Below are positions 7,901 through 55,100 of a stretch of DNA of 64,000 nucleotides, piece by piece. The DNA lies in assembly GCF_963921235.1 (NCBI RefSeq), contig NC_086097.1, positions 136,898,001 to 136,962,000 on the forward strand, read 5' to 3'. Every line of letters starts with the position of its first letter. The first letter of the stretch is position 1. The translations under genes and the position numbers were made by a program. The notes beneath the pieces were generated by a model that was given only the letters and a program-made list of their open reading frames with translations, had not been told where the DNA came from and did not search any database. The DNA comes from Mobula hypostoma (Eukaryota).

Positions 7901-9885
7901 CTGTGCTCGACCTCATCTCCCTTGCTGATACATCCGAAAACTTCTGAAGATGACAAGACTCTGTGCAGTAGTTGAAGTCCGAGGTGTAAATGGTGAAGAG
8001 AAAGGGACACAAGACAGTCCCCTGTGGAGCCCCAGTGCTGCTGATCGCTCTGTCGGACACACAGTGTTGCAAGCACACGTACTGTGGTCTGCCAGTCAGG
8101 TAATCAAGAATCCATGATACCAGGGAAGCATCCATCTGCATCGCTGTCAGCTTCTCCCCCAGCAGAGCAGGGCGGATGGTGTTGAACGCACTGGAGAAGT
8201 CAAAAAACATGACCCTCACAGTGCTCGCTGGCTTGTCCAGGTGGGTGTAGACACGGTTCAGTTAGACGATGGCATCCTCAAATCCTAGTCAGGGCTGGTA
8301 GGCGAACTGGAGGGGATCTAAGTGTGGCTTGACCATAGGCCGGAGCAGCTCCAGAACAAGTCTTTCCAGGGTCTTCATGATGTGGGAGGTTAATGCCACC
8401 GGTCTGTAGTCATTAAGGCCGCTGGGGCGCGGCGTCTTCGGCACAGGGACGAGACAGGACGTTTTCCACAGTACAGGAACGCTCCGGAGCCTCAGACTCA
8501 GGTTGAATACATGGTGAAGTACTCCACATAGCTGAGGGGCACAGGCTTTGAGCACCCTGGTACTGACACCATCCGGTCCTGCAGCCTTGCTTGGGTTGAG
8601 ACGTTTCAGCTGTCTTCTCACCTGTTCAGCCATGAAGCTCACTGTGGTGGTTTTGTGTGGGGGAGGGGTATAGTCATGAGAGCAGGGTGGGGGACTGTGG
8701 GGAGGGTTAGGAGGGGAGAGTGGAACATGTGTTGTTTGGGGGCCGACAACAGATGGCTCATGTGGGGGATGGGCAGGGGCCACAATGTCAAATCTGTTAA
8801 AGACAGGTTAAGTTCGTTGGCCCCGTCCACACTGCCCTCAGCTCCTCTGTTGCTAGTTTGCCGGAACCCAGTGATGGTCCTCATCCCCCTCCAGACCTCT
8901 CTCATGTTGTTCCGCTGGAGTTTCCACTCAAGCTTCCTCCTGTACCTGTCTTTAGCCTCCCTGATCCTGGCTTTCAGGTCCCTCTGTGTTGCCCTCAGCT
9001 TCTCCCTATTTCCATCTCTAAATGCCCTCTTTTTAGCGTTCAGGATGTCCTTAATGTCCTTTGTCACCCATGGCTTGTTATTTGAATAACAAAGGACAGT
9101 TCTTGTCGGAACATTGCAGTCCACACCGAAGTTGATGTAATCCGTGATGCACTCTGTGAGCCCATCAATATCCTCTCCATGTGGCTCACAGAGTGCCTGC
9201 CAGTCTGTCACCTCAAAGCAACCCTGGAGCGCCACATAAGCCTCCTCCGACCATTTCCTCACTGTCCTCGAGGTTGCAGGTTTACTCTTCACCAGAGGCA
9301 CGTAGCAGGGTTTTAGATGCACCAGGTTGTGATCTGACCTTCCCAGTGGGGGGAGGGGAGAGGAGCTGTATGCATCCTTAACGTTAGCGTACATCAATTA
9401 GGAGAATGGGCAAAGAGGTGGCAGATGGAATACAGTGTTGGCAAGTGTATGGTCATGCACTTTGGTAGGAGGAATAAAAGCATAGACTAATTTCTAAAAG
9501 AGGAGTAAATTTTTAAAAATCTTGGTACAAAGAGATTTGAGAGTCCTTGTGGAAGATTGCCTAAGTATTAACTTGCAGGTTGATTCAGTGGTGAGGAAGT
9601 TGAATGTAATGTTAACATTAATTTCAAGACGACTAGATATATAAAAGCAGGGGTGTAACGCTGAGTCTGTATAAGGCACTCATGAGACCTCACGGAGTAC
9701 TGTGAGCAATTTTGGGCCCTTTATTTAAGAATGTTGGAGAGAATTCAGAGGAGGTTCACAAGAATGATAGGATTAGCATATGAGGAGCGATTGAAGGCTG
9801 TGGGCCTGTACTCGCTGGAATTTAGAAGAACAAGGGGGGATCTTACTGAAACCTATTGAATGTTGAAAGACCTTAATAGAGTGGT
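4935..9885 (+). mobile_element. Degenerate CR1 LINE (ORF1 esterase remnant plus ORF2), split by a Rex1 at 7104-9396
   Basis: VVIGYSIVRG/VCCLPGA SGNH-like remnants; RT remnants (GVPKGYMLG, KFVDDTKIG); host resumes at 9397 (attaggagaatgggc). Confidence 0.85.
7104..9396 (-). mobile_element. Rex1/Babar LINE, 5'-truncated and frameshifted
   Basis: ORFs with [54 protein letters not shown] and KTKELVVD; 3' end AATAAAG(TATGAC)n. Confidence 0.92.
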
Positions 9886-12420: not shown

Positions 12421-12455
12421 ACTTCCTAACTGACATTTCTATAAACCCTTAGTTA

Positions 12456-13000
12456 CAACACACACAAAATGCTGGAGGAGCTCAGCAGGTCAGGCAGCAT
12501 TGATGAAAATTAATAAGCTGTTGACGTTTCAGGTCGAGAACATTCTCCAGGACTGGAAAGGAAGGGGGAAGAGGCGAGAATAAAATGGGGGGAAGGAGAA
12601 AGAGGCCAACTAGAAGGTGATAGGTGAAGCCAGGTGGGTAGGAGAGATAAAGAGCTGGAGAAGAAAGAATTTGATAGGAGAGGAGGGTGGACCATAGGAG
12701 AAAAGGAAGCGGTAAGGGACTCAGGAGGAGGAAATTTTTTTACCGTAAGAAGAAATCAATATTCATGCCATCAGGTTGGAGGCTACCCATGCAGAATACA
12801 AGGTGTTGCTACTCTAAACTTGTGACTCATCTTGGCATAGGAGGAGGTCATGGACCGACGTACAGGAATGGGAATCAGAATTAAAATGTTTGGCCACCGG
12901 GAAGTTCCGCTTTTGGCAGATAGAGTGGAAATACTCGATGAAGTGGTCTCCAATTTACAACAGGTCTCACGATAGAGAAGAGGCTGCTTTGGGAGCCCCA
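12456..13000 (-). mobile_element. Penelope-like element 3' fragment
   Basis: Degenerate GIY-YIG-region reading (LLYRETCCKL, compare LYIGET); hammerhead relic at about 12517-12556; terminus ..CTCCAGCATTTTGTGTGTG shared with other copies. Confidence 0.7.
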
Positions 13001-17379: not shown

Positions 17380-17592
17380 CTTGGATACTCCCATTGGTGG
17401 GTAGCCTATCACTCTTTGGTCTTCTCGCCTACCCCTCTACCCCACCCCCACAACAGCTTTTTATTCTAGCTTCTGCCCTTTTCATTTCCAGTTCTGATGA
17501 ATGGTCTCAGCCTGAAGTGTCAACGTTTTATTTCTCTCCATAGTTTCTGCCTGACCTGCTGTGTTCCTTCAGCATTTTGTGTGTGTTGCTCT
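17380..17592 (+). mobile_element. Penelope-like terminal fragment
   Basis: CAGTTCTGATGAA..GAAG hammerhead relic followed by the shared ..CAGCATTTTGTGTGTG terminus. Confidence 0.6.
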
Positions 17593-18124: not shown

Positions 18125-19565
18125 CAGAGTCATTGAGCAATGTAGCATAGATACAGGCTGCTCACCCCAAAGAGTTGATGTCGACCACAGTGCCCAGCCA
18201 GCTAGTCCCAAATTCTTTTACAAGTCCTACCACTATCCCACCAAATCCACGCCTTCATGTACCTCTCCAAGTGCTTCTTGAATGATGCTATTGTTCTTAC
18301 CTCAACCACTTCCTCTAGCAGTTCATTGCATGTACTCACCACCTTCTGCATGAAAAGGTCGCCCCTCAGGTCCTATTTAAATCTTTCTGCTCTCACCCTA
18401 AATCTGTGGCCCTGTTTTTGGACTCCCCTACACTGGGGAAAAGATCATTAATGTCCATCAAATCTACGCCTGTTGTAATTTTAACCATGTCTCGAAGGAT
18501 ACCCCTCATTCTGTGTTTCAAGGAATAAAGGCCTATCCTGGCCAATCTCTCTCTATAACTCAGACCTTCTAGTCCCCACAGCATCCTTGTAAATCAGTTT
18601 TACACTCTTTCCATTTTAATCACATCTTTTCCATAACAGTGAGACTATTACTATACATAGTAGTCCAAGTGTAACCTCATTAATGACACACGTAACTGAA
18701 ACTTAATGTCTCAACCCCTAAACTCAGAACCCTGACTGACAAAGGCCAGTGTATCTAATGCATCTTTCACCACCCTGTCTACCTGTGACACTGCTTTCAA
18801 TGAACTCCCTCCCTCCATTCCATTACACTCTCCAGTGTCCTATCATTGCTGGGATAAGTTTGGTGTAACTTCCCAAAAGGCATCACCTCACATTTACTGA
18901 AATAAATTTGCAACTCCTCGGCCTGCTTCCCCAACTGATCAATATCCCCTTATAATCTGCATTAACTTTCTTCAGTATCAACACCTGCTAAGCTTGTGTC
19001 ATCTGCAAGGTTACTCTTCAAGCCTTGTACATTTGCATCCGTCATTTATATATATTGACAAGGGTCCCGACACCGAACCCTGTCACCGGCCTCCATTCTG
19101 AGAAACAGCCTTCAACCACAAACAAGAGAAAATCTACAGATGCTGGAAATCTGAGCAACACGCAAAATGCTGGAGGAACTCAGCAAGCCAGGCAGCATCT
19201 ATGGAAAAGAGAACATTCGATGTTTCGGGCCAAGACCCTTCAACCTCTGCTTCTTACCTCTAAGAAAATTTTGAATCCATCAAACTCGTCCCCATAGATT
19301 CCATGAAACCTAACCTTCCAGACCAGCCTGCTAAGTGGGACCTTGTCTGAGATCTTGCTAAAGTCCAACAAGATAATGTTCAATGTCCTACCCTTGTATA
19401 CCTTTTTGGTTACTTCTTTGGAAAAACTCTAAAAGTTTTGTCAAGCATTTTCTGCACACAAAGCCATGTTGACTCCTCTTAATCATACTCTATCTATCCA
19501 AGTGTTGATAGGCCCAGTCACTCAGAATCTTCCGGATGATGTTAGGCTCACCGGCCTGTGGTTCC
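18125..19565 (-). mobile_element. Degenerate CR1 fragment containing a Penelope-like piece at about 19118-19243
   Basis: GLSYRERLARIGLYSL and other RT remnants; insert carries the CAAAATGCTGGAGGAACTCAGC terminus. Confidence 0.7.
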
Positions 19566-20619: not shown

Positions 20620-20816
20620 GGTAAATCTAAATTTTGTCCGTTCTGTTTTTCTCTAAGTATTTTATGGTGTATTATTTTGTTTTGTGTTTACAAAATTACA
20701 AACATTATTTTCAATGTGGCAAAGTCAAACCAGTGTTGAACTTACACTATAAGTCAAATTCAAATCAAATTTTTTTGAATTTGATTTGATAAGTTGTTGG
20801 TGAAGCCACACTTGGA

Positions 20817-23800
20817 TCGCGCAAGGCCACTGGGAAGATCTAAAAAGCGAGGAGTTTCTTTCAGCAGGAGATTCGATTGGGAGAAGTGCACAGGCACGAT
20901 AGCTCATCATCACGCAAGGCCACTGGGAAGATTTAAAAAGCGAGGAGTTTCTTTCAGGGGGAGATTCGATTGGGAGAAGTGCACAGATGCAGTAGCTTGT
21001 CATCACGCAAGGCCACTGGGAAGATTTAAAAAGCGAGGAGTTTCTTTCAGCGGGAGATTCGATTGGGAGAAGTGCACAGATGCAGTAGCTTGTCATCACG
21101 CAAGGCCACTGGGAAGATTTAAAAAGCGAGGAGTTTCTTTCAGCGGGAGATTCGATTGGGAGAAGTGCACAGGCACAATAGCTCATCATCACGCAAGGCC
21201 ACTGGGAAGGTTCCGGGATAAAAGAGAGACACTGCCTAGCGGAGCAGTCGTTGGAGTGGCATGAGTCAGAGTAGTAGGACTTTGGCAAGGTAAGGCGGTA
21301 AGTTACTCTCATATCTCTTTTTTTTCGTCTAATTTAAGAATAGTGGGTATGATTGCAAGGCCAATTTTCTGCTCTGGGTGTCAGGTGTGGGCTATCCGGA
21401 ATACTTCCAGCCTCCCTAATGGCCTCATTGGCGGCAGGTGCATCGAGCTGCAGCTCATTAGAAACCGACTGAGGGAATTGGAACTGCAGCTCGATGACTT
21501 TCGGCTTGTCAGGGAATTTAAGGAGGTGATCGATAGGAGCTACACGCAGGTAATCACACTGGGGCCAAAAGAGACAGATAAGTGGGTGAATGTCAGGAGA
21601 GGGAAGGGAGAGCATCAGGTAGTGGAGAGCACCCCTGTGACTGTCCTCCTTAACAATGAGTACTCTATTTTGAATACTGTTGGAGAGGGGGAACTGAGAG
21701 TGGCCGCGCTTCTGGCCCTGTGGCCCAGAAGGGCAGGGGACAGAAGAGGATGGCAGCAGTAATAGGGGACTCTATAGTTAGGGGGACAGACAGGAAATAC
21801 TGTGAGCGTGAAAAAGAAACACAGATGGTAGTTCTTGGTGTTTCTGAACATGTCCACAATATCCTGAAATGGGGAGGGTAAGCAGCCAGAAACTATGGTA
21901 CACGTTGGTACCAATGACATAGATAGAAAAAGTGAGGAGGTCCTGAAAGCAGAATACAGGGAGTTAGGAAGGAAGCTGAGAAGCAGGACCTCAAGGGCAG
22001 TAATCCCATGACAGTGAGTATAGGAATATAATGAGCTGCTGGATAGAATGCGTGACTGAAGGATTGGAATGGGGGCGGGGATTCAGATTTCTGGATAATT
22101 GGGACCTCTTTTGGGGCTGGCGTGATCTGTTCAAAAAGGATGGGTTGCACTTGAATTCAAGGGGGACCAATATCCTGGTGGGGAGATATGTTAATGCTTT
22201 TGGGGAGGGTTTAAACTAGATTTGATTTGCAGAGGGGTGGGAACCGAAGTGAAGAGGCAGAGAATGGGGCAGTTGGCACACAAGTAGAGACAGCTTGTAG
22301 GGAGTTTGTGAGGAAGAATAGGCAGATGATAGAACAAAGACGCACTCAGTCTGATCTGTCAATTTTAATGCAAGGAGTATCATAAACAAGGTGGATGAAC
22401 TTAGAGCATGGATCAATATGTGGAACTATGACATTGAGGCCATGACAGAGATCTGGATGTCTCAGGGGCAGGAATGGCTGCTGAGTGTGCCAGGCTTTAG
22501 ATGTTTCAAAAAGGACAGGGAGGGAGGCAGGAGAGGTGGGGGAGAGGCATTGCTAATCAGGGATAGTGTCACAGCTGCGGAAAAGGAGGAAGTCTTGGAA
22601 GGATTACTTACTGTGTCAGTGTGAGTTGAAGTCGGAAACGGGAAGGGGGCAATAAGTCTACTGAGTATTTTTATAGACCCCCTCAATAGTAACAGGGACA
22701 TCGAGAGGCAGATTCTGGAACAGTGCAATGATAACAGGGTGGTTGTGATGGGAGATTTTAACTTTCTTAATATTGACTGTTATCTCCTTAGAGCAAGGGG
22801 CTTAGATAGGGTGGAGTTTGTTAGGTGTGTTCAGGAAGGTTTCCTAATGCAATATGTAGAGAAGCCAATTAGAAGAGAGGCTGTACTTGATCTCGTGTTG
22901 GGAAACAAACCTGGTTAGGTGTCAGAACTCTCGGTGGAAGAGCATTTTGGAGATCACAACTCTATCTCCTTTATCATAGCACTGAAGGGGGATAGGAGTA
23001 GACAATTTGGGAAAGCATTCAATGGGATAGGGGGAAATATGATGCTATTAGGCAGGAACTTGGGAGCATAAATTGGGAGCAGATGTTCTTAGTGAACACT
23101 TCAAGGACCATTTGCATGGCATTCTGCAGAGGTATGTTCCACTGAGGCAGAGAAAAGACTATAGGGTAAAAGAACCATGGTGTGAAAAGGATGTGCCGGG
23201 GGGGGGGGGGAATCTAGTTAAGAAGAAAGAAAAGCTTACAAAAGGTTCAAGAAACTAGGTACTGACAGAGTTCTAGAAAATTACAAGGTTGCCAGGAAGG
23301 ACCTTAAGAATAAAATTAGAAGAGCCAGAAGGGGCCATGAGAAAGCCAGGATTAAGGAAAACCCCAAGTCATTCAACAAGTATGTGAAGAGCAAGAGGAT
23401 GAGCCATGTGAGAATAGGATCAATCAGATGCGATAGTGGAAATGTGCATTGAGTTGAAGGAGGTAGTTGAGGTATTTAATGAATACTTTGCTTCAGTATT
23501 CACCAGGGAAAAGGATCTTGGTAACTGTGGGGATGACTTACAGCGGACTGAAATGCTTGAGCATATAGACATTAAGAAAGAAGATGTGCAGGAGCTTTCC
23601 AAAAGCATTTTTGAAAAGATAATTCACTGGGACTGGGCAAGATATACTCCAGGCTACTGTGGAAAGTGAAAGAGGAGATTGCTGAGCCCCTGGCGATGAT
23701 CTTTGCATCATCAATAAGGACGGGAGAACTACCAGATGATTGGAGGGTTGCAAATGTTGTTCCCGTGTTCAAGAAAGGGAGTAGAGATAACCCAGGAAAT

Positions 23801-25178
23801 TATAGACCAGTGAGTCTTACTTCAGTAGAAGGCAAGTTGTTGGAGAAGATCCTGAGAGGCAGGATTTGTGAGCATTTGGAGAGACATAATCTGATTAGGG
23901 ATAGTCAGCATGGCTTTGTCAAGGGTAGGTCATGCCTTATGAGCCTGATTGATTTCTTTGAGGATGTAACAAAACACATTGATGAAGGTAGAGCAGTAGA
24001 TGTAGTGTGTATAGATTTCAGTAAGGCACCTGATAAGGTACCCCATGCAAAGCTCATTCAGAAAATAAGCATGCATGGGATCCAAGCAGCCATTGCTTAG
24101 TGGATCCAGAATTGGCTTGCCCACAGAAGGTAAAGGGTGGTTGTAGATCGTTCGTATTCTGCATGTAGGTCAGTGACCAGTGGTATTCTGCAGGGATCTG
24201 TTCTGGGACCCCTCCTCTTAGTGATTTTTATAAATAACTTGGATGAGGAAGTAGAAGGGTGGGTTAGTAAGTTTGCTGATAACACAAAGTTGCGGGGGTT
24301 GTGGATAGTGTGGAGTGTTGTCAAAGGTTACAGCGGGACATCAATAGGATACAGAACTGGGCTGAGAAGTGGCAGATGGAGTTCAACCCAGATAAGTGTG
24401 AAGTGGTTCATTTTGGTAGGTCTAATTTGAAGACCGAATATAGTATTAATGGTAAGACTCTTGGCAGTGTGGAGGATCAGAGAGATCTTGGAGCTCGTGT
24501 CCATAGGACACTCAGAGCTGTTGCACAGGTTGACAGTGTTGTTAACAAAGTGTATGGTGTGATAGCCTTCATCAACCGTGGGATTGAGTTCAAGAGCCAT
24601 GAAGTAATGTTAAAGCTATACAAGACCTTGGTCAGACTCCACTTAGAATACTGTGTTCATTTCTGGTCACTTCACTACAGGAAGGCTGTGGATATTATAG
24701 AGAGAGTGCAGAGGAGATCTACAAGGATGTTGCCTGGATTGGGGAGCATGCCTTATGAGAATAGGTTGAGTGAACTTGGTCTTTTCTCCTTGGAGTGACG
24801 GAGGATGAGAGGTGACCTGATGGAGGTGTACAAGATGATGAGAGGCACTGATTGTGTGGATAGCCAGAGGCTTTTTTCCAGGGCTGAAATGGCTAACACG
24901 AGGGGGCATAGTTTTAAGGTACAGTACTTGGAAGTAGGTACTGAGGGGTAAGTTTTTCCACACAGAATGGTGGGTGCATAGAATACACTGCCAGCAGCGG
25001 TGGTAGAGGCAGATACAATAAAATCTTTTAGAGACTTTTGGATAGGTACACGGAGCTTAGAGAAATAGAGGGCTATGTGGTAAGGAAATTGTAAGCAGTT
25101 CCCAGAGTAGGTTACATAGTCGGCACAACATTGTGGGCCGAAGGGCTTGTAATGTGCTGTAGGTTTCCATGTTCTATG
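20817..25178 (+). mobile_element. Full-length but disrupted CR1 LINE: 5' tandem monomers, ORF1 (Cys motif, leucine zipper, SGNH esterase), ORF2 (APE + RT)
   Basis: ORF1 CSGCQVW..CIELQL..LRELELQL and DGLHLNS; APE AMTEIW and GDFN; RT NYRPVSL, GILQGSVLGP, FADN; TTCTATG tail; splits an older CR1 at LE|YCVQFW. Confidence 0.92.
20819..21209 (+). repeat. 93-bp tandem repeat, about 4.2 units, forming the CR1 5' UTR
   Basis: GCAAGGCCACTGGGAAG recurs at 20821, 20914, 21007, 21100 and 21193. Confidence 0.97.
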
Positions 25179-26886: not shown

Positions 26887-27795
26887 TTGGAAATGGGATG
26901 TACAGATAGACATCTAGACAGCATTAGCAACTTCAGGGCAGACAGACCAATCAAATATCTAAAGAATTCAGACTGTCAATTAATATCAGGAAATGTGCAG
27001 CTATGAAAGTTTCATTTTCCCTGTGCAAAATGAAGGGAGACATTCTTTAAAAGTTGGTACTTGTTTTCTTTTATTTACTTGCTCCTTGAACAATGACCAT
27101 TTCATCCAAATAAATTACCTGCTAGATTCTGCCAAGAGCTCATAGGGGAATAGACAAGTTGGGAAAAACTATACAATCTTCATTTAAACTGCTTCACTGG
27201 GTAGCAAATGCACAAATTCATCTTTGCAAGGTTTCTATTCATAGCAGTGCAGCTCTGCATTGCTGCAGCAAGTTTGTATGACAACTCTGCCACAAGTCAT
27301 CTACAAATAAAAAATTGTCCAATGACTTTTGAATCAGTTTCAGTGTGTAACCATTCATATGCTGTTTGATAGTACTTAGACCAAATTAGTTGTTTTTGCT
27401 AAGTACGATACAAATTTCAACAATGCAATGAATCAATCAAACACAAATCGAAATGGTACAGAACGGTTACAACAGTTTTATGCTCTTGGAATGTAACAGA
27501 AACCTGATATGGTAGCACCCTACTAATCTTCAGTAAGATTAGTGATTTAAAATGATCAGTCAACATTTGTACTGCTAAAATACTTAACACTCTGTTAAAT
27601 CTTTTGAAAATTCATTTCTCATTTAATGGCATGAATGCTTTAATTTAGCAACAACATAACCTGATTATTGTTACATAATTTTTTTTAAAAAATCATCTCT
27701 GCTGAAGTCCCTGTTTTTAATCTAGGAGTTGAATCCACTGCCCATTTCATAGGGTTCAAACAGGTGAGATTTTACACCATGTTTACGAGGCTCAT

Positions 27796-28100
27796 CTATT
27801 GGCTCCCCTTTGTTGTGCTTGAAGATGTGCTGCTCCATTTAGAAATGCTCCTTGCGGATCGTCTAACACCTGGTGACTGGATCTCAACTGTTTCCGATTC
27901 ATCGCCGTCCCCCTCAAAAGGATGATCCGACTCCGCACGGCGAGGCTCTGGGTAGGAGGGCTGGGAGTGTGGGTTTGGGTAGGGGTAGGACCCCTGGTAC
28001 ATGTACAGTTCTCGCTCATCATAATGGTCATAGGTTCGATGGGAGTTTGGAGGCAATTGTACTACAGGGACGTCTTGATCGGTTGGATCACTGTATTCAC
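27796..28100 (-). CDS. col14a1: col14a1 terminal exon, long NC1 ([20 protein letters not shown]...[17 protein letters not shown]...KGSQ*)
   Basis: ttaag|GT acceptor in frame with ORF 27796..28056; resembles the recalled chicken collagen XIV NC1 (PTDQDIPVVQLP...SPG). Confidence 0.85.
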
Positions 28101-31100
28101 CTTAACCCACCACCACCACCAACAGTATCCATAGTTAGCACAGGAGGAGAGGCAGAAGATTGAATATGAGCAAGATATTAGAACATTATTTGTAAATTCA
28201 TTAAGCTGTTTGGTGCTTGATGTACATTTTAACAGGTAAATTTAAAATACACAAATGATGAGTAGTGGAGATGACAAAGACAAGTAGAGGTTGTGACGCA
28301 AACACAGTACAACAATGTCCAGCACCAGGGAGATAGGAAGAAAGTCACAAGACAGGGACAAATGGGTTCTTTTTTTCTTAAGTTTTTCCTCGTATGATAG
28401 AAAAGCATGTTTGTTAGATGGTTTGGAATGAATTGGTGACTTTATGATGGTAAAGATGGCATTCATTGGTTTGGTCACTTTGTGTCAGGTTAGATCACAG
28501 CAGCATTTGCTCAGGAAGGACAATGCACCTTTAGACTCCATACATTTGCAAGTAGCAATCTGAAGGAATTGAAGTCAACCAAGTAACAAGATGCACATGA
28601 TATCCCTTCTCAGTAAGGACAATCAGAGAGCAATTAATGATAGCAAGGTTGGTGCCTCTTAAATAAGTGAAGCTGCATTTTAATTTCCTTTCATCATTAA
28701 AACAGATGAATAGTGAACAATGAAAGCAATTTAGTTTCAAAAACTGGTAGGTCATTGTTAGCTTGATTAGTTTATAAAAAGTGATTAAAGGCCGTGTTCC
28801 AGCCATGGTAGCCTTGATACAAAAGTGTTTGTATCTGGTTTAAGTGGAAAGGTAAAAGCTGGTAATATCTGTTTGATGGTGGTTACTAAACCTGGATGAG
28901 GCAAGATTGACAGAACGTTTGCCCCACGACTCTACACCAGTCCAACATGACAGTGAACACTGAGAAGATCAGCTAGTACCTTGTTCCTAGTTGATAATCA
29001 CTGTAAACTTCTTGAGCTTCAAATTATTGCCAGAATAGATGGGGTTGGTGTGGAAGAGAAGACAAGGAAAAACAGAAACCCATTTAACAGTCAGTATAAA
29101 AAACACAAACACAAGCAAGCAAATGCTAAAATAACTTTCACACTTGTTTTGAAAAGAGCAGCCAAAGGGGTGATTTATTGTGTAAATTTATTTTTCAATT
29201 CGCATTGCCTGAATCTTGTGTTAAAGTCAATCTCTGCCCACTAAGTATGTAATTTACAGTATATTTATTGTTATAGAATTACTTAAGGTGCCCTGAAACA
29301 AGACCTTAAAATATAGGAACAGAATCAGGCCATTCAGTCATAAAGTCTACTCAGCCAGTTCATTCTACTACCTTCTCCCCGTAACCTTTCGTACCCCAAC
29401 TAATCAAGACCCTATCAAACTCTGCCTTAAATACACCCAATAACCTGGCCCCCACGGCCACCACTAGCAACAAATTCCATAGATTCACCACCCTTTGGCA
29501 GAAGAAATTCCTCCTCATTTCCATTCAAAATGGACGTCTCTTTCTGAGGCTGTGTCCTCTGGACCATAAGAAATAGGAGCTGAATTAGGCCATTCAGCCC
29601 ATCATGTCTGCTCCACCATTCCATCATGGTTGATCCTGGATCCCACTCAACCCCATACACCTACCTTCTCTCCATAACCTTTGATGCCCTGACCAATCAA
29701 AAAACTATCAACTTTCGCTTTAAATATACACACGGTCTTAGCCTTGGCAGCTATCTGTGGCACAGCTTTCCACAGATTCACTACTCTCTGGCTTAAAAAA
29801 AATCCTCCTTACTTCTGTTCTAAAGACCTTAAGACATAGGAGCAGAATTAGGCCATTCGGCCCATCGAGTCTATTCTGCCATTCAACTATGGCTGATCCC
29901 TTTTACCCCCTCCTCAGCCCCACTCCCTGCCGTTCTCCCCATAACCATTGATGCTGTGTCCAGTCCAGAACCTATCAAGCTCTGCCTTAAATACACCCAA
30001 CAACCTGGCCTCCACAGCTGCCTGTGGGAACAAATTCCACAAATTGATCCTAGACTCCCCCACCGTAGGAAACATCCTCTCCACATCCACTGACTAGGCC
30101 TTTCAACATTCGATAGGTTTCAGTGAGATTCTTCCCCCCCCCCCCATTCTTCTAAATCCCAGAGCCACCAATCGCTCCTCATATGATAAGCCTTTCAATC
30201 CTGGAATCATGAACCTCCTCTAAACCCTCTCCAATGCCAGCACATTCTTTCTTAAATAAGGGGCCCAAAACTGCTCTCAATACTCCAAGTAAGGTCTCCC
30301 CTGAACCTTCTAACACCTCAGCATTACATCCTTGCTTTTATATTCTAGTCCTCTCAAAATGAATGCTAACATTGCATTTGCCTTCCTCACCATCGAATCA
30401 ACCTTTAGGGAATCCTGCACAAGAACTTCCAAGTCCTTTGCACCTCAAAATTTGGATTGTTTTTTAAACAGAGAAAAATCGAAGTCTCTATTCCTTCCGC
30501 CAAAGTGCAGCACCATACATTTCCCGACACTGTATTCCATCTACCACTTCTTGCCCATTCTCCTAATCTGTACATATCCTTCTGCAGCCTCCTGCCTCCT
30601 CAACACTACCTGCACCTCCACCAATCTTTGTATCATCTGCATATTTGGCCACAAAGCCATCAATTCCATCATCCAAATCACTGAAGTACAATATAAAAAG
30701 AATCAGTCCCAAAACAGACTCCAGTGGAACACCACTAGTCACTGCCAGCCAACCAGAAATAGAACATAGAATAGTACAGCACAGTACAGGCCCTTCAGCC
30801 CACAATGTTGTGCTGACCCTCAAACCCTGCCTCCCATATAACCCCACACCTTAAATTCCTCCATATACCTGTCTAGTAGTCTCTCAAACTTCATGAGTGT
30901 GTCTGCCTCCACCACTGACTCAGGCAGTGCATTCCACACACCAACCACTCTCTGAGTAAAAAACCTTCCTCTAATATCCCCCTTGAACTTCCCACCCCTT
31001 ACCTTAAAGCTATGTCCTCTTGTATTGAGCAGTGGTGCCCTAGGGAAGAGGCGCTGGCTATCCACTCTATCTATTCCTCTTATTATCTTGTACACCTCTA

Positions 31101-34100
31101 TCATGTCTCCTCTCATCCTCCTTCTCTCCAGAGAGTAAAGCCCTAGGTCCCTTAATCTCTGATCATAATGCATACTCTCTAAACCAGGCAGCATCCTGGT
31201 AAATCTCCTCTGTACCCTTTCCAATGCTTCCACATCCTTCCTATAGTGAGGCGACCAGAACTGGACACAGTACTCCAAGTGTGGCCTAACCAGAGTTTTA
31301 TAGAGCTGCATGATTACATCGCAACTCTTAAACTCTATCCCTCGATTTACGAAAGCTAACACCCCATAAGCTTTCTTAACTACCCTATCTACCTGTGAGG
31401 CAACTTTCAGGGATCTGTGGACATGTACCCCCAGATCCCTCTGCTCCTCTACACTACCAAGTATTCTGCCATTTACTTTGTACTCTGCCTTGGAGTATGT
31501 CCTTCCAAAGTGTACCACCTCACACTTCTCTGGGTTGAACTCCATCTGCCACTTCTCAGCCCACTTCTGCATCCTATCAATGTCTCTCTGCAATCTTCGA
31601 CAATCCTCTACACCATCTACAACACCACCAACCTTTGTGTCGTCTGCAAACTTGCCAACCCACCCTTCTACCCCCACATCCAGGTCGTTAATAAAAATCA
31701 TGAAAAGTAGAGGTCCCAGAACAGATCCTTGTGGGACACCACTAGTCACAATCCTCCAATCTGAATGTACTCCCTCCACCACCACCCTCTGCCTTCTGCA
31801 GGCAAGCCAATTCTGAATCCACCTGGCCAAACTTCCCTGGATTCCATGCCTTCTGACTTTCTGAATGAGCCTACCATATGAAATCTTGTCAAATGCCTGA
31901 CTAAAATCCATATAGATCACATCTACTGTACTACCCTCATCTATATGCCTGGCCACCTCCTCAAAGGACTCTATCAGGCTTGTTAGACACGATTTGCCCT
32001 TCACAAAGCCATGCTAACTGTCCATGATCAGACCATGATTCTCTAAATGCCCATAGATCCTATCTCTAAGAATCTTTTCCAACAGCTTTCCCACCACTGA
32101 CGCAAGGCTCACTGGTCTATAATTACCCAGACTATCACTGCTACCTTTTTTTGAACAAGGGGACAACATTCGCCTCCCTCCAATCCTCCGGTACCATTCC
32201 CGTGGACAACGAGGACATAAAGATCCTAGCCAGAGGCTCAGCAATCTCTTCCCTCGCCTCATGGAGCAGCCTGGGGAATATTCCGTCAGACCCCGCGGAC
32301 TTACCCGTCTTAATGTATTTTAACAACTCCAACACCTCCTCTCCCTTAACATCAACATGCTCCAGAACATCAACCTCGCTCATATTGTCCTCACCATCAT
32401 CAAGTTCCCTCTCATTGGTGAATACCGAACAGAAGTATTCATTGAGGACCTCGCTCACTTCCACAGCCTCCAGGCACATCTTCCCACCTTTATCTCTAAT
32501 CGGTCCTACCTTCACTCCTGTCATCCTTTTGTTCTTCACATAATTGAAGAGTGCCTTGGGGTTTTCCTTTACCCTACTTGCCAAGGCCTTCTCATGCCCC
32601 CTTCTTGCTCTTCTCAACCCCTTCTTAAGCTCCTTTCTTGCTTCCCTATATTCCTCAATAGACCCATCTGATCCTTGCTTCCTAAACCTCATGTATGCTG
32701 CCTTCTTCCACCTGACTAGATTTTCCACCTCACTTGTCACCCATGATTCCTTCACCCTACCATTCTTTATCTTCCTCACCAGGACAAATTTATCCCTAAC
32801 ATCCTGCAAGAGATCTCTAAAAATCGATCACATGTCCATAGTACATTTCCCTGTAAAAACATCATCCCAACTCACACCCACAAGTTCTAGCCTTATAGCC
32901 TCATAGCCTCATAATTTGCCCTTCCCCAATTAAAAATTTTCCTGTCCTCTCTGATTCTATCCTTTTCCATGACAATGCTAAAGGCCAGGGAGCGGTGGTC
33001 ACTGTCCCCCAGATGCTCACCCACTGAGAGTTATGTGACCTGACCCGGTTCATTACCTAGTACTAGATCTAGTATGGCATTCCCCCTGGTCGGCCTGTCC
33101 ACATACTGTGACAGGAATCCGTCCTGGACATACTTACCAAACTCTGCCCCATCTAAACCCTTGGAACTAATCAGGTGCCAATCAATATTAGGGAAGTTAA
33201 AGTCACCCATAATAACAACCCTGTTATTTTTGCACCCTTCCAAAATCTGCCTCCCAATCTGCTCCTCTGTATCTCTGCTGCTACCAGGGGGCCTATAGAA
33301 TACCCCCAATAGAGTAACTGCTCCCTTCCTGTTCCTGACTTCCACCCATACTGACTCAAAAGAGGATCCTGCTACATTACCCACCCTTTCTGTAGCTGTA
33401 ATAGTATCCCTGACCAGTAATGCAAACCCTCCTCCCCTTTTTCCGCCCTCCCTATCCCTTTTAAAGCACTGAAATCCAGGAATATTGAGAATACAATCCT
33501 GCCCTGGTGCCAGCCAAGTCTCTGTAATGGCCAATGCATCATAATTCCACGTATGTATCCAAGCTCTCAGTTCATCACCTTTGTTCCTGATGCTTCTTGC
33601 ATTGAAGAGCATGCACTTTGGCCCTTCTACCCTCCTACCTTTACACCCTTTATTCTGCTTCTCTTTCCCCAAAGCCTCTCTATATGTTAGATCTGGCTTT
33701 ACTCCATGCACTTCTTTTACTGCCCTTTCACTCAGGGTCCCATCCCCCTTGCAAATTAGTTTAAACCCAAAATGGCTCCCTTTATTCCACTCTGCCTCCT
33801 GCCAATCAGCCAGTGCTCTACCAACGCTAGTATTTTTCCTGTAATCCCATGGGCTCTATTTTATTAATCAGCCTCGCATGCAGCACCTTGTCAAAGGCCT
33901 TCTGAAAATCCAAGTATGCCATATCCACTGATTCTCCTTTATCTATCCTGCTTGTTATTTCCTCAAAGACTTCCAACAGATTTGTCAGGCAAGATTTTAC
34001 CTTAAGGAAACTATGCTGACTTTAAGCTACTTTATCATGTTCCTCCAAGTTCCCCGAAACTGGTGCATAGTAGTAGCTACGCTGCCCTTACCTACATTTG

Positions 34101-37100
34101 ATTAACCTGATCACCACTGTTTTCTGTTGTATAGGCCATCTGTCTACCCACCCCCACCCCCATGACTCTATGCTGTTTCCCTCAATCACACTTTGAGGTG
34201 GCATGTTTCATTTATTGTTACAGTAACAGAGCTGTAGATTCTTTGACTTTTAACCCCTTTGTTGCTATTTTTTAATAAATGGTCTTTTTTTAGCAGAGGA
34301 AAAGAACTTAGAATGAATTTAGAACAAAGAACGTAAAAGTCTCAGGACATTGCTGCAGAGAAGCTTCATGCATTTCAGCGGGTGCATTACTTACAAATGC
34401 AGTGTACTTTAATTGTTTTACCTATGCTCCATCGGTAACAGCGATAGACACAGTACTAACCGCTGCAGCTTATACAGTAGTATGCAAAAGTTTGGGCACC
34501 CCCGGTCAAAATTTCTGTTACTGTGAATAGCTAAGCGAGTAAAAGATGAACTGATTTCCAGTAGGCATAAAGTTAAAGATGACATATTTCTTTAATATTT
34601 TAAGCAAAACTTTTTTATTTCCATCTTTTACAGTTTCAAAATAACAAAAAAATAAAAGAGCCCGAAGCAAAAGTTTGGGCACCCTGCATGGTCAGTACTT
34701 AGTAACACCCCCTTTGGCAAATATCACAGTTTGTAAATGCTTTCTGTACCCAGCTATGAGTCTTTCAATTCTTGTTTGGGAGATTTTCACCCATTCCTCC
34801 TTGCAAAAGGCATCTAGTTCTGTGAGGTTCTTGGGCCGTCTTGCATGCACTGCTCTTTTGAGGTCTATCCACAGATTCTCGATGATGTTTAGAGCAGGGG
34901 ACTGTGAGGGCCATGGAAAAACCTTCAGCTTGAGTCTCTTGAGGTAGTCCATCGTGGATCCTGAGGTGTGTTTAGGATCATTATCCTGTTGTAGAAGCCA
35001 TCATCTTTTCACCTTCGGCTTTTTTTTACAGACGATAGGATGTTTGCTTCCAGAATTTGCTGGTATTTAATTGAATTCATTCTACCCTCTACCAGTAAAT
35101 GTTGAACTTATGAATCCTGGACTTATTTCCTGGCATAATTTACATATTACTATTTAACTATTTATGGTTTTATTACTATTTAATTATTTATGGTGCAACT
35201 GTAACGAAAACCAATTTCCCCTGGGATCAATGAAGTATGACTATGTTCCCCGTGCCACTGGCTGCAACACAAGCCCAAAGCATGATCGATCCACCCCCGT
35301 GCTTAACGGTTGGAGAGGGGTTCTTTTCATGAAATTCTACACCCTTTTTTCTCCAAACATACCTTTGCTCATTGTGGCCAAAATTCAGTGTCAGAAGTTT
35401 GCAAAGGAACATCTAAACTAGCCTGATGCATTTTGGAAACAAGTCCTGTGGACTGATGAAGTTAAAATAGAACTTTTTGGCTGCAATGAGCAAAGGTATG
35501 TTTGGAGAAAAATGGGTGCAGAATTTCATGAAAAGAACCCCTCTCCAACTGTTAAGCACAGGGGTGGATCGATCATGCTTTGGGCTTGTGCTGCAGCCAG
35601 TGGCACGGGGAACATTTCACTGGCAGAGGGAAGAATGAATTCAATTAAATACCAGCAAATTCTGGAAGCAAACATCACACCATCTGTAAAAAAGCCGAAG
35701 ATGAAAAGAGGATGGCTTCTACAACAGGATAATAGTTCTAAGCACACCTCAAAATCCACGATGGATTACCTCAAGGGGTGCAAGCTGAAGGTTTTGCCAT
35801 GGCCCTCACAGTCCCCCGACCTAAACATCATTGAAAATCTGTGGATAGACCTCAAAAGAACAGTGCATGCAAGATGGCCCTAGAATCTCACAGAACTAGA
35901 AGCCTTTTGCAAGGAGGAATGGGTGAAAATCCCCCAAACAAGAACTGAAAGACTCTTAGCTGGCTACAGAAAGCGTTTACAAGCTGTGATACTTGCCAAA
36001 GGGGGTGTTACTAAGTACTGACCATGCAGGGTGCCCAAACTTTTGCTTTTCCTTTTTTGTTATTTTGAAACTGTAAAAGATGGAAATAAAAAAGTCTTCT
36101 TGCTTAAAATGTTAAGGGAATGTGTCATCTTTAACTTTATGCCTTTTGGAAATCCGGTCATCTTTTACCCGCTTAGCTATTCACAGTAACAGAAACTTTG
36201 ACCTGGGTGCCCAAACTTTTGCATGCCACTGTACAACCAAAACAAAGCTGTGCCTCAGCAGGGAAAGCAGCAACAGATTTGTTTGTATCTGAAGCTTAAG
36301 GCTTAAAATCAGTGACACCAACAAAAAAGACAAAATACAAAAGGGCAAACTTAGCGTTTCCTGACATTTTTTGCTCTGCAAAACGGAGGCATAGCAACCA
36401 GAGCAGCGGTAAGGTGCAGGAGCACAGGCAGTAAGTAGTATGCCCTACCTCCAATATTGTAGCCAGCACAGGTAGAGGCATCACAGTAACCTGGTGGTCC
36501 AGGTGGTCCTCTTTGTCCTCTAGGTCCTGTACGTCCCGAGCTACCTTGTTGTCCTGGGAGCCCCGGAGGTCCTTGGCGCCCAGTCCGTCCCTCACCCTGA
36601 GGGCCTGTAATAGAGACGGAGATGAACACAGCAGGTTTAGACACAAGTGAACAGTTGCTTCACACTTCACCTCTCTATTGTTGATCCTGCCTTTAGCTGC
36701 CTGGTTCCACAATTCCTTCATTAGCTTCTGCATCTCACTGTTTCTCCTTCTTTAAGATACTTACTAATACTTACCTCTGACCAAACCTTTTCTCATCTGT
36801 TCTAATGCAGGGGTCCCCAATCTTTTTTGCACCACAGGCCAGTTTAATATTGACAATATTCTTGCAGACCGGCCGACCGGGGGTGGGTGTTCAAGTAGGG
36901 TTAAAGCTCACCTCAACATGTCTTTTACAGTTAGTATTGCCAACTTTCTCACCCAAGTAAAGGACAAAAGTAGCAGTCAAATACGGGACGCTTGAGTTTA
37001 CCCCGAGAAAGATGACCATGACCATGAATCCTTGCGCGGGCACCTGTGTATACATGCTGATATTTTTCCACAAATCGGTTTTGCCTTAATCTTCCTTACT

Positions 37101-40100
37101 ATACTGTACATACATTATTTCTACTTTATATAGGCTGTGTATTTATCATATCATTCCTGCTTTTACTATATGTTAGTGTTACTTTAGGTTTCATGTGTTA
37201 CTTGGTATGATTTGGTAGGTTATTTTTTGGGTCTGGGAATGCTCAAAAATTTTCCCATATAAATTAATGGCAATTGCTTCTTCGTTTTACGCCATTTCAG
37301 CACAAAAGGTTTCATAGGAACGCTCTATCTTAGTGGGGGAAATACGGGTCAAGGGTGGTCCCGTATGGGACAAACCAATTTAGCCCAATATACGGGATGT
37401 CCCGGCAAATACGGGACAGTTGGCCACCCTACGTTCGAGTTCAACAGTGCATGACAGGGAATGAGGAGAGGTGCAGCTGACTCACATCGTTTCCTCACAG
37501 CCCGGTAGCACATGCTTTGCAGCCCCGTACGGGTCTGCAGCCCGGTGGTTGGGGACCACTGTTCTAATGTCATGGTCAAATTCTGAACATCTCAGTCCCA
37601 CTCCCATTCAGTCTGGCTATCCACTGATGTCTTGTGGAACACAGGAGAAGTTAAGCGAGGGTAAGAATGACAATGGCAGTGATGTCCCTGTGAAACCAAT
37701 TAGCTTCCTGCCATGACAACTAACTGGATTGACGTGACACCTCTCGCTTTTAAAACATCCCTCCAGGATGGAATTCCAGAGCCAGAATCAAGACAATGGA
37801 AGGCGTGGCTGTCATTGGTAGAGTGATTAAAGACATACATAGAACGGTCACCAGGCTGGAGGGGGTTATAAAGGTAGGGACTAAACTGTAGAGGAATTTT
37901 TAAAAAGAATGAGGATTTGAATCTGCTGCGCTGTTTAACAGGAGCTGGTGAAAGTCAGCCAGCACGGGGCAAATGGGTAATCAGATCTTGCTGCCTGTGT
38001 TCAAAGTTCAAAGTAAAGTTATTATCAAATAAAATATATCACTATATACAACACTATAACTTTCTTGTGGGCACACTCAGTAAATCCAAGAACCATAATA
38101 AATTCAGTGAAAGACTGCACACAACAGGACGGACAAGCAATCAATGTGCAAAAGGTAACAAACTGTGCAAATACAAATGAAAAATGAAAAATAATAAATG
38201 AGCAATAAATATCCAGAAGAGAAGATGAAGAGTCCTTGAAAGCGAGTCCATAGGCTGTGGGAACATTTCTGTGTTGGGGTAAGTGAAGTGACCCCATTGG
38301 TTCAAATCCTGATGGTTGAGGGGTTCCTCACCCTGATGATGTGAGTACTGAGGCTTCTACACTTTCCTGGTGGCAACAGCAAGAAGAGAGCAAGACCTGG
38401 GTGTGAGGAGCCCTGATGATGGATGCTGCTTTCCAGGTAGATGTGCTCAAGGGTGGGGAGGGTTCTACCCATGATGGACTCTGGACTTTTTGTAGAATTT
38501 ACCGTTCAAAGGCATTGGTGTCTCCATACCAGGATGTGATGCAGCCATGTCAATGTACTATCCACCACACATCGATTGAGGTTTATCAAAGTTTTAGATG
38601 TCATGCTGAATCCTCACAAACTTCTTTGCTTTCTTTGTAACTGCACTTACGTGCTGGGCCCAGGACAGGTCCTCTGAAATGAGAACGCCGAGGAATTTAA
38701 AGTTGCTGACCCTCTCTACCTCTGACCGCCCCCCCGATTAGGGCTCACAGTCCCCTGGTTTCCTCCCGCTGAAGTTAATAATCAGCTCCTTGGTCCTCCT
38801 GACATTGAGTGAGAGGTTGCTTCAAAGTTCAAATTACATTTATTAAAGTATGTATACAACCTTGAGATTCGTCTCCTTACGGCAGCAACAAAACAAAGAA
38901 ACCCAACAGAACCCATTTTAAAAAAGATCGTCAAACAGCCAGTGTGCAAAAAGAAAACAAAGGTAAGCAAATAACATTTGCAACTGAATTTCACGAAAGT
39001 GAGTTCACAGCCACAAAGCTGCCACAACCAATGCAGGAGCCTGTTAGTTGCAGGCCACAGCCTCAGTTCAGTGCAGAGGTGAGTAAACCTCGCGGAGCAG
39101 TGAGCTGAACACTGGCCTGTCCCTTGCCTCCGGCCCCAACACCCAGACATTTTCAATCTAGCCCAAGATTTAAATCAGCCTCACTCTCAGACCCGGGACC
39201 CACCGCTTCGATACCCTCGGGCCCGGAATCCACCACTTCGATTCGGCCCGCCGTACCCGACCTTTTCAACTCGGCCAGGTATTTAAATCGGTCAAACTTG
39301 GGCTTGTTCCACCCTCTTAGGCCCAGGCCTCACCTCGACTCTGCCGCTTCTGATTGCAGCAGTGGCCAAACATTAGCTCTTACCCTGCTCTCAGACCCAG
39401 GCCCCACGGCCTCGATTCGGCCCATAACACATCGTCCTGAACCTTCAAGACCTCAAGTCACACCGCAAAAATGCCAGCTTGTACAGGCACTTCACAAGGG
39501 AAGTTACAGGCTATTGCTATAGTGATCATTTGAGAAAAAGTGAGAGGAATAAAGTTCACAGTGATGTCTGCTTGCAGCACCACCTTAATCTGGAAAAACA
39601 GTTTAAAATGGCGCCACTCAGCCAGATTTTCAATCTCTCTCCTATATGCTCATTTGTCACCACCTTTGATTCAGCCAAAGGCAGTATGTCACTGATGCTG
39701 TGCTTAGCCACAGTCATTAGTGTAAGTGAATAGAGCAAGGGGCTAAGCATACAGGTGCACCTGTGATGATGGAGATTCTGGAGGAGATGTGCCAGTCCAG
39801 ACTGACTGGGGTCTGCAAGTGACGAAATCAAGGATCCAATTGCACAAGGAGGTATTGAGGCCAAGATCTTGAAGCTTATTGATTAGTTTTGAAGAGATGA
39901 TAGTACTGAATGCCAAGCTGTAGTCAATGAAGAGCATCCTGATGTATGTATCTTTGCTGTCCAGATGTTCCAGGGTTGAGCAAAGAGTCAATGAAATGGC
40001 ATCTGCTGTGGTCCTGTTGTGACAGTAGGCAAATTGGAGTGGATCCAAGACACTTCTCAGGCAGGAGTTGATATGTTTCAACACCAGCCTCTGAAAACAC

Positions 40101-52100: not shown

Positions 52101-55100
52101 AGACACTGCAGTGTTTCACGTATTTCAGTCAGGCCACTTCTCATTTTCCTAGTTTTCCATTTACTCAATGTGTTCCTGCGTATTAACAGCTGGATTACAG
52201 GAACAGTGATGTATATCATGCAAGTCTGTTGAAATGTTCTAAAAAGAAAATCTAACCCACAATGGAATGTAGAGGATTTTGCAAAGATTTGGTGACTTCA
52301 ACAAATCCTGAATCATTGTAGCTCTGAGCCATAACATTAAGCACTTGCAACACATTCTAATGTTCCCTGCTTGGACTGATCATTCATAGCTAGCCCCAAA
52401 GCTCAGATTTTGAACTTCTTGGGGAGCAAGAATATCCTTGTAATCCATAGATCACCCTCACTGGTGTCAAAGGTACTGAAAAACCAGAACTAAGTCAACC
52501 CAAAGCTCTCTGACTCCAAGTAGAACACCAGTGAAGGGACAGCACAAGAGGTAGTGCTGCTGTCTCACAGCTCCAATCCTGACCTTGGGTGCTGTCAGTG
52601 TTTGCTTGATCTCCCTGTGACTGTGTGGGTTGACTCCAGGTGCTCCAATTTCCTCCCACATTCCAAAGTCGTGCTGCTTGGTTAACTGGCCACTGAAATT
52701 ATGGTAGTTTAGTTAAGTGTCAAAGTAATAAAAGGGGAGTCAATGGAAGATGAGAGAAAATACATAGTGAAAGTACAGGGAAATGAGATGGAGAATGGAG
52801 TGATGGGACTCTTTGGCTGGGTGCTAGCAGCATGTGATGGGCCAAATGCCCTCCGATGACATACTACGTAACTATTCAAGGAAAACAACGATGAAAGTTC
52901 CTAATCCTAATCATTGGTCCTGCAGCCACTAATTTGTGAAAACAGGGAGCCCATATTTTCCAAAGAGATAATGTCAAACTGTTCTGTGTTCCCGAATCAC
53001 TTGTTATCCCGACATAATTCATTGTCAGAAGCATGACTTTAGCTAAAGAGAGCAAATCCGTTACACACCAGCAATTACTGGGTTTCCTGATACACAATTC
53101 TTACAGATTTCAATCAGTAACTTTCCTCATTTTCCACACAACGGCTGTCATTGTTTAAAGTTCCCACTGAAGATCAGATCCATGTGACTTCACCCAACTT
53201 GTCCCCATAAGTAAAAGCAAGCATTTTCAGCAAATTTGTTCATGCCAGGGTCACATTCACCGACTCTTCTAAGAAACCTACAACTTTGTAAAGTCACTTT
53301 CTTTCTGTGGGATAGATCCTTTCTGTGGTTATAATGAATAGATAGTGTCTGCTGACTGACTGGAAAAGTTTGCTCTAAATTAGAATCTAACAGAGAAACA
53401 ACTTCAATCAAACTTTGGCTAGAACTATTGAGAGTGAGGAAGTTCCAGATATGTCACGTATATTGTAGAGTGTAATTAACTGAGGGAATGTTTATTTAGT
53501 TTGGCCTGTTCAGTGTTCAGACTCGTCAGAATTTGTAGGCTCGTTCATTGCCTTTTAATAATATAATAGAATCCTACAAATGGGTTTCTCATTCCTCATT
53601 GACACTGGTGCATCAATACTGAACTGAACTGTTAAAGCCACTGTATTACATTAAATACAGCTTTAGCAACAGGTGTCAACTGGAGAGCAGGGATACAGAA
53701 GTCATCCAATGCTACATTCAAACTTGTAACATATGGATGCTGGACTCCACTTTTGAAAGCAGGACCTACTGATTTAATGAATGGACATACATATTGGAAG
53801 CCTCCTGGTGCCAGCTTTGAGAAACATGGCTAAAGAAGAGGGAAAAGACCCTGTGGCCCTGAGGGAAGAAGAACTCCGTGCTGGAAATAAAGTGGCAAAT
53901 GGGACAATCGATCGCTCTTTCAGTTGTTCAAGATCAGATCAGTTGGGGCCAGGAATCCATTCCTGGAATACCAACTTTTCCTAGTGCCAATGGAAAAGTA
54001 GAGGGAGAAACTTCCAAGAAAATTCCACACTGGGGGATAGGGAGTGGAGGCACACATTTTCTGGCTCAGACTCCCGAGATCTGAAGATCAATGTCCAAGA
54101 GGCTTCTCATCAAAAATTACCGGGGCATCAGAATGAAATTGAGCACTTTCATCTTCCTGGAACGTTAGTGTTTCCCAGTTATAGAAGTTGTGATGGGTAA
54201 AGGGGCCAGGGATCATGAGGATGGACATAGCTATGGTGTGTGGTATGAGGCAACTAGAGATGGCAGGTCATGTCACAAATATGATCAACTCCCCTTCAAT
54301 TCCACCTAGAACTGTGGTCTTCAATAGACTTCATAGCTTTCTTTATAAATCTTTAGTTAGGCAGCACTTGAGAATATTGTGTACATTTCTGGTCACCCTA
54401 TTGTAGGATGAAAAAGGAGATTTTGAAAAAGCCACAGCAGAGGTTAGCCAGGATTTTGACCAGAAAATCCAAACAATGCACACAAAATGCTGGAGGAACT
54501 TAGCAGGCCAGGGGGCATCTACGGAAAAGAGTAAATAAAATGAGAAAGTCCTAGTGAGTCCTGATGAAGGGTCTCGGCCCAAAACATTGACATTTACTCT
54601 TTTCCATAGATGCTGCCCAACCTGCTGAGTCCCTCCAGCATTTTGTGTGTGTTAACTAGGATCTTGCCTGGATTAGAGGGCATGTGCAATAAGGGGAAGT
54701 TGGACAAATTTGGGTTGTCATCTCTGGAGTAGAAGAGGCTGAGGGGAGACCTGATGGAAGTTTAAAAAACTATGAGAGGCATAGATAAGATAGAAGATCA
54801 ACATTTTTTTTCTGGGTTAGAAATGTCAAACTCGAGGACATGCATTTAGGGTGAAATGTACTGCTCAAGTTTTTCTTTAAACAATAGGAGTGTTGGGTGC
54901 ATGGAATGGCTGCCATGGAAGGTGATGGAATATATGGTAGTGGCATTTAAGAGGCTGTTAGGGAGATGCATGAATATGGAGAAAATGGAGGCAGGATATG
55001 GTTCCTTTGCAGTCAGAAGAAATTTAGTTTAATTCAACGTTGTGCTTCGCACAAACATCGTGGGGCAAGAGGACTGTTCCCATGCAGAAATACTCAATAT

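Follow-up and report, generated by a model that had tools for sequence, protein, structure and literature searches.

The transposon relic at 34475-36231 of the window (i.e. the complete stretch of 64,000 nucleotides that was analysed) is best explained as the inactive, non-autonomous offshoot of a Tc1 family that is abundant and of the DD34E IR/DR type; in it, two 3' halves lie head-to-head. We put at roughly 70% the probability that this arrangement came about by template switching, whereby the 5' half of an element was replaced by an inverted 3' half. The rearrangement type as such is already known from insect mariners, and the ray copy is a tidy vertebrate example of it.

Two 3' halves in a single element

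Self-comparison of the 64-kb window yielded the inverted pair 34470-35103 / 35611-36236 together with 35243-35383 / 35475-35615, and hence the inverted arms that a preliminary description of this DNA had placed at 34475-35383 and 35475-36231 are present. The parts of the element are as follows:

34473..34474, + strand: TA at the left end, read from the sequence
34475..34684, - strand: left terminus, a reversed 3'-type IR/DR Tc1 inverted repeat (18-nt direct repeats at 34484-34501 and 34667-34684)
34695..35383, - strand: left arm, dead transposase of residues 160-340, split by a LINE tail (of the triad only the second Asp and the Glu are kept; reading broken by a stop and a +2 frameshift)
35099..35247, + strand: LINE 3' tail, 144 bp long and accompanied by a 5-nt duplication, confined to the left arm (96% match to 7110-7240; RVT_1 in the parent; family copies skip the tail)
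35379..35383, no strand: junction, a 5-nt microhomology between antisense left arm and sense right copy (the ordinary 5' continuation is loose from 35379 in sequencing runs X1, X5 and X13; the left arm ends at 35383)
35380..36021, + strand: right copy, transposase residues 128-340, DD34E, with two in-frame stops (translation and domain match)
35384..35474, + strand: former 'spacer', i.e. transposase codons ~129-159 of the right copy including the first catalytic Asp; hairpin loop (translation)
36022..36231, + strand: right IR/DR terminus (direct repeats 36029-36046 and 36205-36222)
36232..36233, + strand: TA at the right end, read from the sequence

In a global alignment the arms are identical at 697 of 758 bases (92%), with 45 transitions, 16 transversions, six small gaps and the LINE insert, and their divergence is even (8.2% in the coding part, 7.7% in the terminus). 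The inner hairpin has a z-score of -31, far beyond chance for an inverted repeat, a value that says only that the DNA is an inverted repeat. Each terminus spans ~210 bp and holds two 18-nt direct repeats, so that the IR/DR terminus reported for both arms is borne out (repeats starting at 34484/34667 and 36029/36205), as is the TA at either end. The ~90 bp between the arms had been taken for a spacer, i.e. for separate DNA, which they are not: they continue the transposase reading of the right copy. There is no host DNA between the two halves, which meet at the 5-nt microhomology. Both termini are outermost and both arms are 3' halves. In an autointegration (inversion) product two original ends are joined into the element's own interior; that origin was rejected on the position of the termini and the nature of the arms.

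The LINE insert measures 144 bp with its 5-nt duplication (35099-35103 / 35243-35247), while one base pair next to it has been lost, which makes the net gain 143. Its parent, at 7103 onward, encodes a reverse transcriptase (RVT_1). The insert had earlier been called Rex1; the insertion as such holds, and Rex1 is kept here as a putative name, the parent showing only a reverse transcriptase. It landed after the fold-back had formed, in the left arm only. Without it the element is 1,613 bp long, and 761 nt precede codon 128.

Several other repeats were seen in the window. Two LINE copies of 2.8 kb (22364-25177 and 30759-33606), in opposite orientation and 69% alike, bracket both NC1 terminal exons of the host gene; in another col14a1 intron, 54479-54649 is a short palindrome, imperfect at 72%, formed by a dispersed repeat with related pieces at 12450-12585, 17459-17588 and 19158-19242; and 20816-21212 is a tandem repeat with a period of ~93 nt and units 91-96% alike.

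Family membership and coding content

The right copy carries no frameshift and corresponds to residues 128-340 of the 340-aa Tc1 transposase P0002, to which it is 91% identical; 34 residues separate the second Asp from the Glu. Its match to DDE_3 (E 2.5e-14) is the only domain match in the element, the DNA-binding domains of P0002 being missing from both arms (residues 128-340 on the right, 160-340 on the left), in agreement with the earlier remark that the N-terminal half is absent. That remark had also assigned the DDE C-terminal region to both arms. Transposase homology is indeed found in both, but all three catalytic residues (D, D34E) occur in the right copy only, as the left arm begins past the first Asp.

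As an IR/DR Tc1, the element has the DD34E triad in a DDE_3 domain (right copy), ends of ~200 bp with inner and outer direct repeats and a CAGT end (the definition given in PMC2198921), and a TA dinucleotide on both sides, as judged from the occupied site. It is not an autonomous Tc1, residues 1-127 being gone and both arms holding stops, and at 1.6 kb it is not short, as a MITE would be. Its structure is that of the rearranged long-TIR derivatives of the Rpmar17/49 type, in which an inverted copy of one half takes the place of the other and the arms are homologous to transposase.

The reading frame of residues 128-340 can be followed back into the left arm as far as an ATG at 35329, which gives a 230-codon frame (35329-36021, +) that lacks a DNA-binding domain; here it is broken by two stops, and the X5 junction described below would preserve the same frame. 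A fusion protein across the junction was rejected, given the two stops in the element and the absence of junction-crossing protein matches (0 of 4 and 0 of 31).

Records P0003, P0004, P0122 and P0123 bear on the spread of the transposase: close relatives are present in the teleosts Monopterus and Gouania, with 82% likeness over 152 aa, and there are short matches in one frog and one grouper gene model; by protein likeness the family is a candidate for horizontal transfer. The element's own Tc1 family was absent from 80 metagenome loci (best 68% identical in protein) and was not found in viral contigs, and nine matches of a 20-nt pattern in prokaryote genomes were taken as chance. One metagenome contig (L066) has 938-bp inverted repeats (1-938 / 2085-3022, 99.7%) around a Tc1-like transposase, which may be either a long-TIR element or an assembly effect.

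The fold-back and its family in public sequencing runs

Four public runs were aligned to the window at 85% likeness: X1, X5 (a related species), X13 and X21. The last of these (raw reads) proved unrelated, with 10 reads aligned. In X1, short-read contigs cross both borders between element and flank with 0 differences, over 34150-34500 (351 letters) and 36209-36700 (492 letters); these contigs run into the element from either side, and the X1 species therefore truly carries the insertion. In X5 the flanks differ by ~6%, and the flank pieces listed reach 34452 on one side and resume at 36235 on the other, which is suggestive of, and would be compatible with, an empty site.

The Tc1 family is very abundant: its depth reaches 1e5-1e6 as against ~9 on the flanks, depth being no copy number. 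In X1, X5 and X13 alike the ordinary 5' half runs off at 35379, and as the left arm ends at 35383 the two halves overlap by the 5-nt microhomology. Among 24 of ~95,790 contig pieces listed, none spans the central junction and none is a second copy of the exact junction.

A further breakpoint was seen in X5, where 88 contigs come loose at 35402. This end is one of 18 listed of 1,335, and its consensus is noisy (agreement 0.67). In the consensus, 12 letters match antisense 35466-35477 exactly, after which come 9 letters that copy antisense 35479-35471, and 17 of these 21 letters fit a continued left arm; in a shuffle control, any 12-letter match arose in 40 of 20,000 shuffles. These letters hint at a second fold-back junction ~20 nt from that of the window, which would leave the total length unchanged (18 nt for 18 nt), and the number of contigs hints that the X5 junction may be multi-copy. 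X5 also contains a joint that skips 851 nt, from 34550 to 35402 (one contig, depth 126.5), which points to a putative derivative of ~910 bp with the same 35402 breakpoint.

Per two-place contig, ordinary 5' continuations number 49 of 4,765 in X1, 60 of 10,365 in X5 and 59 of 3,671 in X13, i.e. they are scarcer than in X13 at p = 0.024 (X1) and 4e-8 (X5), by a rough, post-hoc ratio. The ratio of arm to loop depth was dropped as a gauge of two-armed copies: it ranged over 0.87-1.55, was highest in X13 and was uninformative. As a separate matter, the bin of the LINE tail (35099-35247, 7103-8700) has a depth of 1.4 million in X1, 20,514 in X5 and 28 in X13, an unevenness that indicates a lineage-specific expansion of the LINE.

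Origin of the inverted half

The length of the element bears on how it arose. Eight loci of distant relatives were tried, two of them without usable ends; of the six with both ends, five measure 1,618-1,687 bp and have 759-793 nt before codon 128, the sixth having 1,589 and 689, where the relatives are only 36-57% identical in protein and do not supply the family's own 5' half. The fold-back matches them in size, and therefore the replaced and the replacing halves were about equally long. To explain this we propose that a polymerase, while copying or repairing an element, reached the left terminal repeat and there changed strand, continuing in the right terminal repeat; it would then have copied ~760 nt in the reverse direction before the 5-nt microhomology took it back, nearly in register, to the template on which it had begun. 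Such a near-register return would keep the total length at about that of a full element, and the two complete termini would make mobilization by transposase in trans possible; the LINE tail would have entered the left arm afterwards, with both arms decaying close to neutrally. For short repeats, the accessible part of PMC5941160 describes template switching in two steps, from one inverted arm to the other and then back to the native template; its extension to 760 nt would be our inference.

The letters that the arms share speak to whether one parent or two were involved. Both carry Thr181Pro, a letter with 35% of the family depth in X1 and <1% in X5 and X13, and both carry Leu233Pro, with a right-arm share of 32% in X1, 56% in X5 and 2% in X13; the arms thus share a Leu-to-Pro change where P0002-P0005 have Leu. 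At 34878/35835 the arms disagree, the subfamily letter being found on the left only, a discordance that counts against one parent because a back-mutation is needed if a single parent gave both arms. Two rare letters common to both arms were initially held to prove one parent; they were downgraded, as ~0.9 coincidences are expected by a crude count and 34797 is unseen in X1. At 34797 the window letter is the right-arm letter of 35916 and has zero depth in X1, though single-copy depth persists at nearby private sites; polymorphism, a short arm-to-arm conversion or a consensus error may account for it.

The discordant letter is what one would expect if two nearby or nested copies in opposite orientation had lost both 5' halves in a deletion, the route proposed for Rpmar17/Rpmar49 and called the 'simplest hypothesis' for those cases in the portion of PMC4678618 at hand, and the TA at both ends and the microhomology fit it equally well. 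Such a deletion, however, leaves the full-length size unexplained, needs both arms to derive from the subfamily at 35%, and finds no leftover 5' half alongside the X5 flanks, which reach to within 22 and 3 nt of the element ends. We therefore favour one parent with a template switch and regard the deletion between two copies as unlikely. Far less probable still is an assembly artefact, i.e. a fold-back chimera or a mis-join in a repeat, which the preliminary description had allowed might undo its reading. The lack of a junction-spanning contig among the 24 pieces listed and the 34797 letter unseen in X1 would suit it, but a read-folding chimera cannot give arms that differ by 8% plus a private insert, and the X1 contigs cross both borders without a difference.

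Host intron and the predicted hairpin

The host gene, on the minus strand, is col14a1. Its relevant exons are the following:

36449..36608, - strand: exon ending the COL1 helix (donor at 36448)
28969..29016, - strand: short NC1 terminal exon, coding part, end approximate (translation equals the short isoform end of the Mobula and Hemitrygon models)
27796..28100, - strand: long NC1 terminal exon, coding part (101 of 101 residues identical to the Mobula hypostoma model)

With M. birostris, the long last exon has 100 of 101 residues in common. The element begins 217 intron bases past the donor at 36448, which is the distance given earlier. It had also been placed in the last col14a1 intron: the gene is right, but this intron is followed by a choice of two last exons, with acceptors 5.5 kb (29016) and 6.4 kb (28100) past the element. 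Of 43 proteins listed, 35 were examined: 9 have the short NC1 end, 25 the long one and 1 a different end. Among the 11 shark and ray species examined, 9 have an annotated short form and 10 an annotated long form. Because both terminal exons are annotated in sharks and rays alike, the choice between them probably predates the element. With a divergence of just 8%, the arms must be much more recent than the separation of sharks and rays. A literature search on the splicing of collagen XIV NC1, which included the available text of PMC5539247, found no passage.

For the minus strand a fold of -1,275 kcal/mol is predicted, with ~718 long-range pairs and a longest helix of 65 bp; of 739 21-mers, the two arms share 142 exactly. 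The col14a1 pre-mRNA is thus predicted to form long dsRNA, as had been suggested, a property that follows from any inverted repeat of 92% identity. Like other intronic inverted repeats, this dsRNA would probably be edited and leave with the intron. Six RNA runs (X15-X20), available as contigs, contained small shares of the sequence words, 0.06-0.10. Repeats are the main A-to-I targets in metazoans, and editability drops with repeat divergence (PMC9989829, in the part accessible); SOS splicing of Tc1 was not observed from introns, according to the sections at hand of PMC12779559.

The arms themselves appear to decay close to neutrally, with no selected role. The dN/dS between them is 0.80 (12 synonymous and 35 non-synonymous changes), G-U-compatible changes show no strand bias (24 on the col14a1 strand against 21, p = 0.77), and differences are spread throughout, the longest difference-free run being 59 nt. 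In 30 of 39 rows, out of 40 of 151 rows listed with 1 X21-driven row left out, the window letter is rare in X1, i.e. the decay is private. A search of 27000-38000 against Rfam gave 0 matches.

These observations bear on the proposal that the hairpin is kept for an action in the host, either by tuning the choice of the NC1 terminal exon or by giving rise to siRNAs against the family. The strength of the predicted fold, the 21-mers shared by the arms, the start 217 nt from the donor and the standing of repeats as A-to-I targets all lend it some appeal. Yet short and long NC1 ends occur in sharks and rays alike, changes are not biased towards the preservation of pairing, a LINE tail is tolerated in one arm and differences run all along, while the fall of editability with divergence, the lack of SOS splicing of intronic Tc1 in the text consulted and the absence of an Rfam match weigh in the same direction. 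We consider such a role very improbable and do not uphold the influence on terminal exon choice that had been put forward: a single dead copy changes nothing about col14a1.

Mobility and known relatives

That the element is a fold-back of the Tc1 class, as the preliminary description had it, stands, but its inference that a non-autonomous palindromic unit had moved does not follow from the TA at both ends, because TA is expected for any two 3' ends. The two complete termini, the full-length size and the X5 hint at 35402 speak for movement as a unit; against it are the lack of a second copy of the window's junction among the listed pieces and of protein products across it (the 0 of 4 and 0 of 31 given above). 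We lean slightly towards arrival of this copy as a fold-back, and give its formation in place a little under an even chance.

The C. elegans fold-backs Tc6/Tc4 measure ~1.6 kb and have arms of ~770 bp. The same kind of rearrangement is seen in the Rhodnius prolixus mariners Rpmar49 (13 copies) and Rpmar17 (227 rearranged copies), which, as far as the text of PMC4678618 at hand goes, arose by replacement of the 5' part by the 3' part and have very long inverted repeats with transposase homology. The breakpoints of Rpmar17 vary around one region at near-constant total size, and the junctions of the window and of X5 appear alike in this respect. The Rhodnius elements, however, are DD34D mariners with short termini, mostly 900-950 bp long and shown to be multi-copy, whereas the ray element is a vertebrate DD34E IR/DR Tc1 of about full length with 760-bp arms, known here from one copy. 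Seven reverse cases in Drosophila are reported in the accessible portion of PMC4161770, whose authors call the origin elusive; among these MITE sublineages Dromar7, 11, 28 and 36 share the half-replacement, the unusually long inverted repeats and the non-autonomy, but in them it is the 3' part that has given way to the 5' part, with short products shown to be amplified. In the extended-TIR copies of Galileo (from the part of PMC4168063 available), too, both inverted repeats have taken in the end of the transposase gene, yet Galileo belongs to the P superfamily, has a target duplication of 7-8 bp and, in its near-complete copy, only 69 bp of coding overlap. Judged by titles and the starts of abstracts, with most subscription journals outside the coverage, we found no such derivative in rays or other fishes, and the accessible texts of PMC5490172 and PMC2198921 contain no such rearranged case.

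A wider reading may be entertained, if tentatively and as a rather doubtful one: a large share of this abundant Tc1 family in these rays, roughly a fifth to a half, could consist of fold-backs of full-length size that form repeatedly at a single place, the template being switched in register from one terminal repeat to the other and the length staying constant. The scarcity of 5' continuations, which parallels the share of the subfamily letters (32% in X1, 56% in X5 and 2% in X13), hints in this direction, as does the X5 junction in keeping the length of the window's own. If true, it would provide a mechanism for half-replacement derivatives, the very class whose origin is called elusive in print, and it would mean that many ready-made hairpins against the family are scattered through introns, i.e. 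a route to self-silencing. A genome with many fold-backs of constant length would make the in-register switch model directly testable on the assembled sequence, and would hold in these copies a natural source of long dsRNA against a family of DNA transposons.
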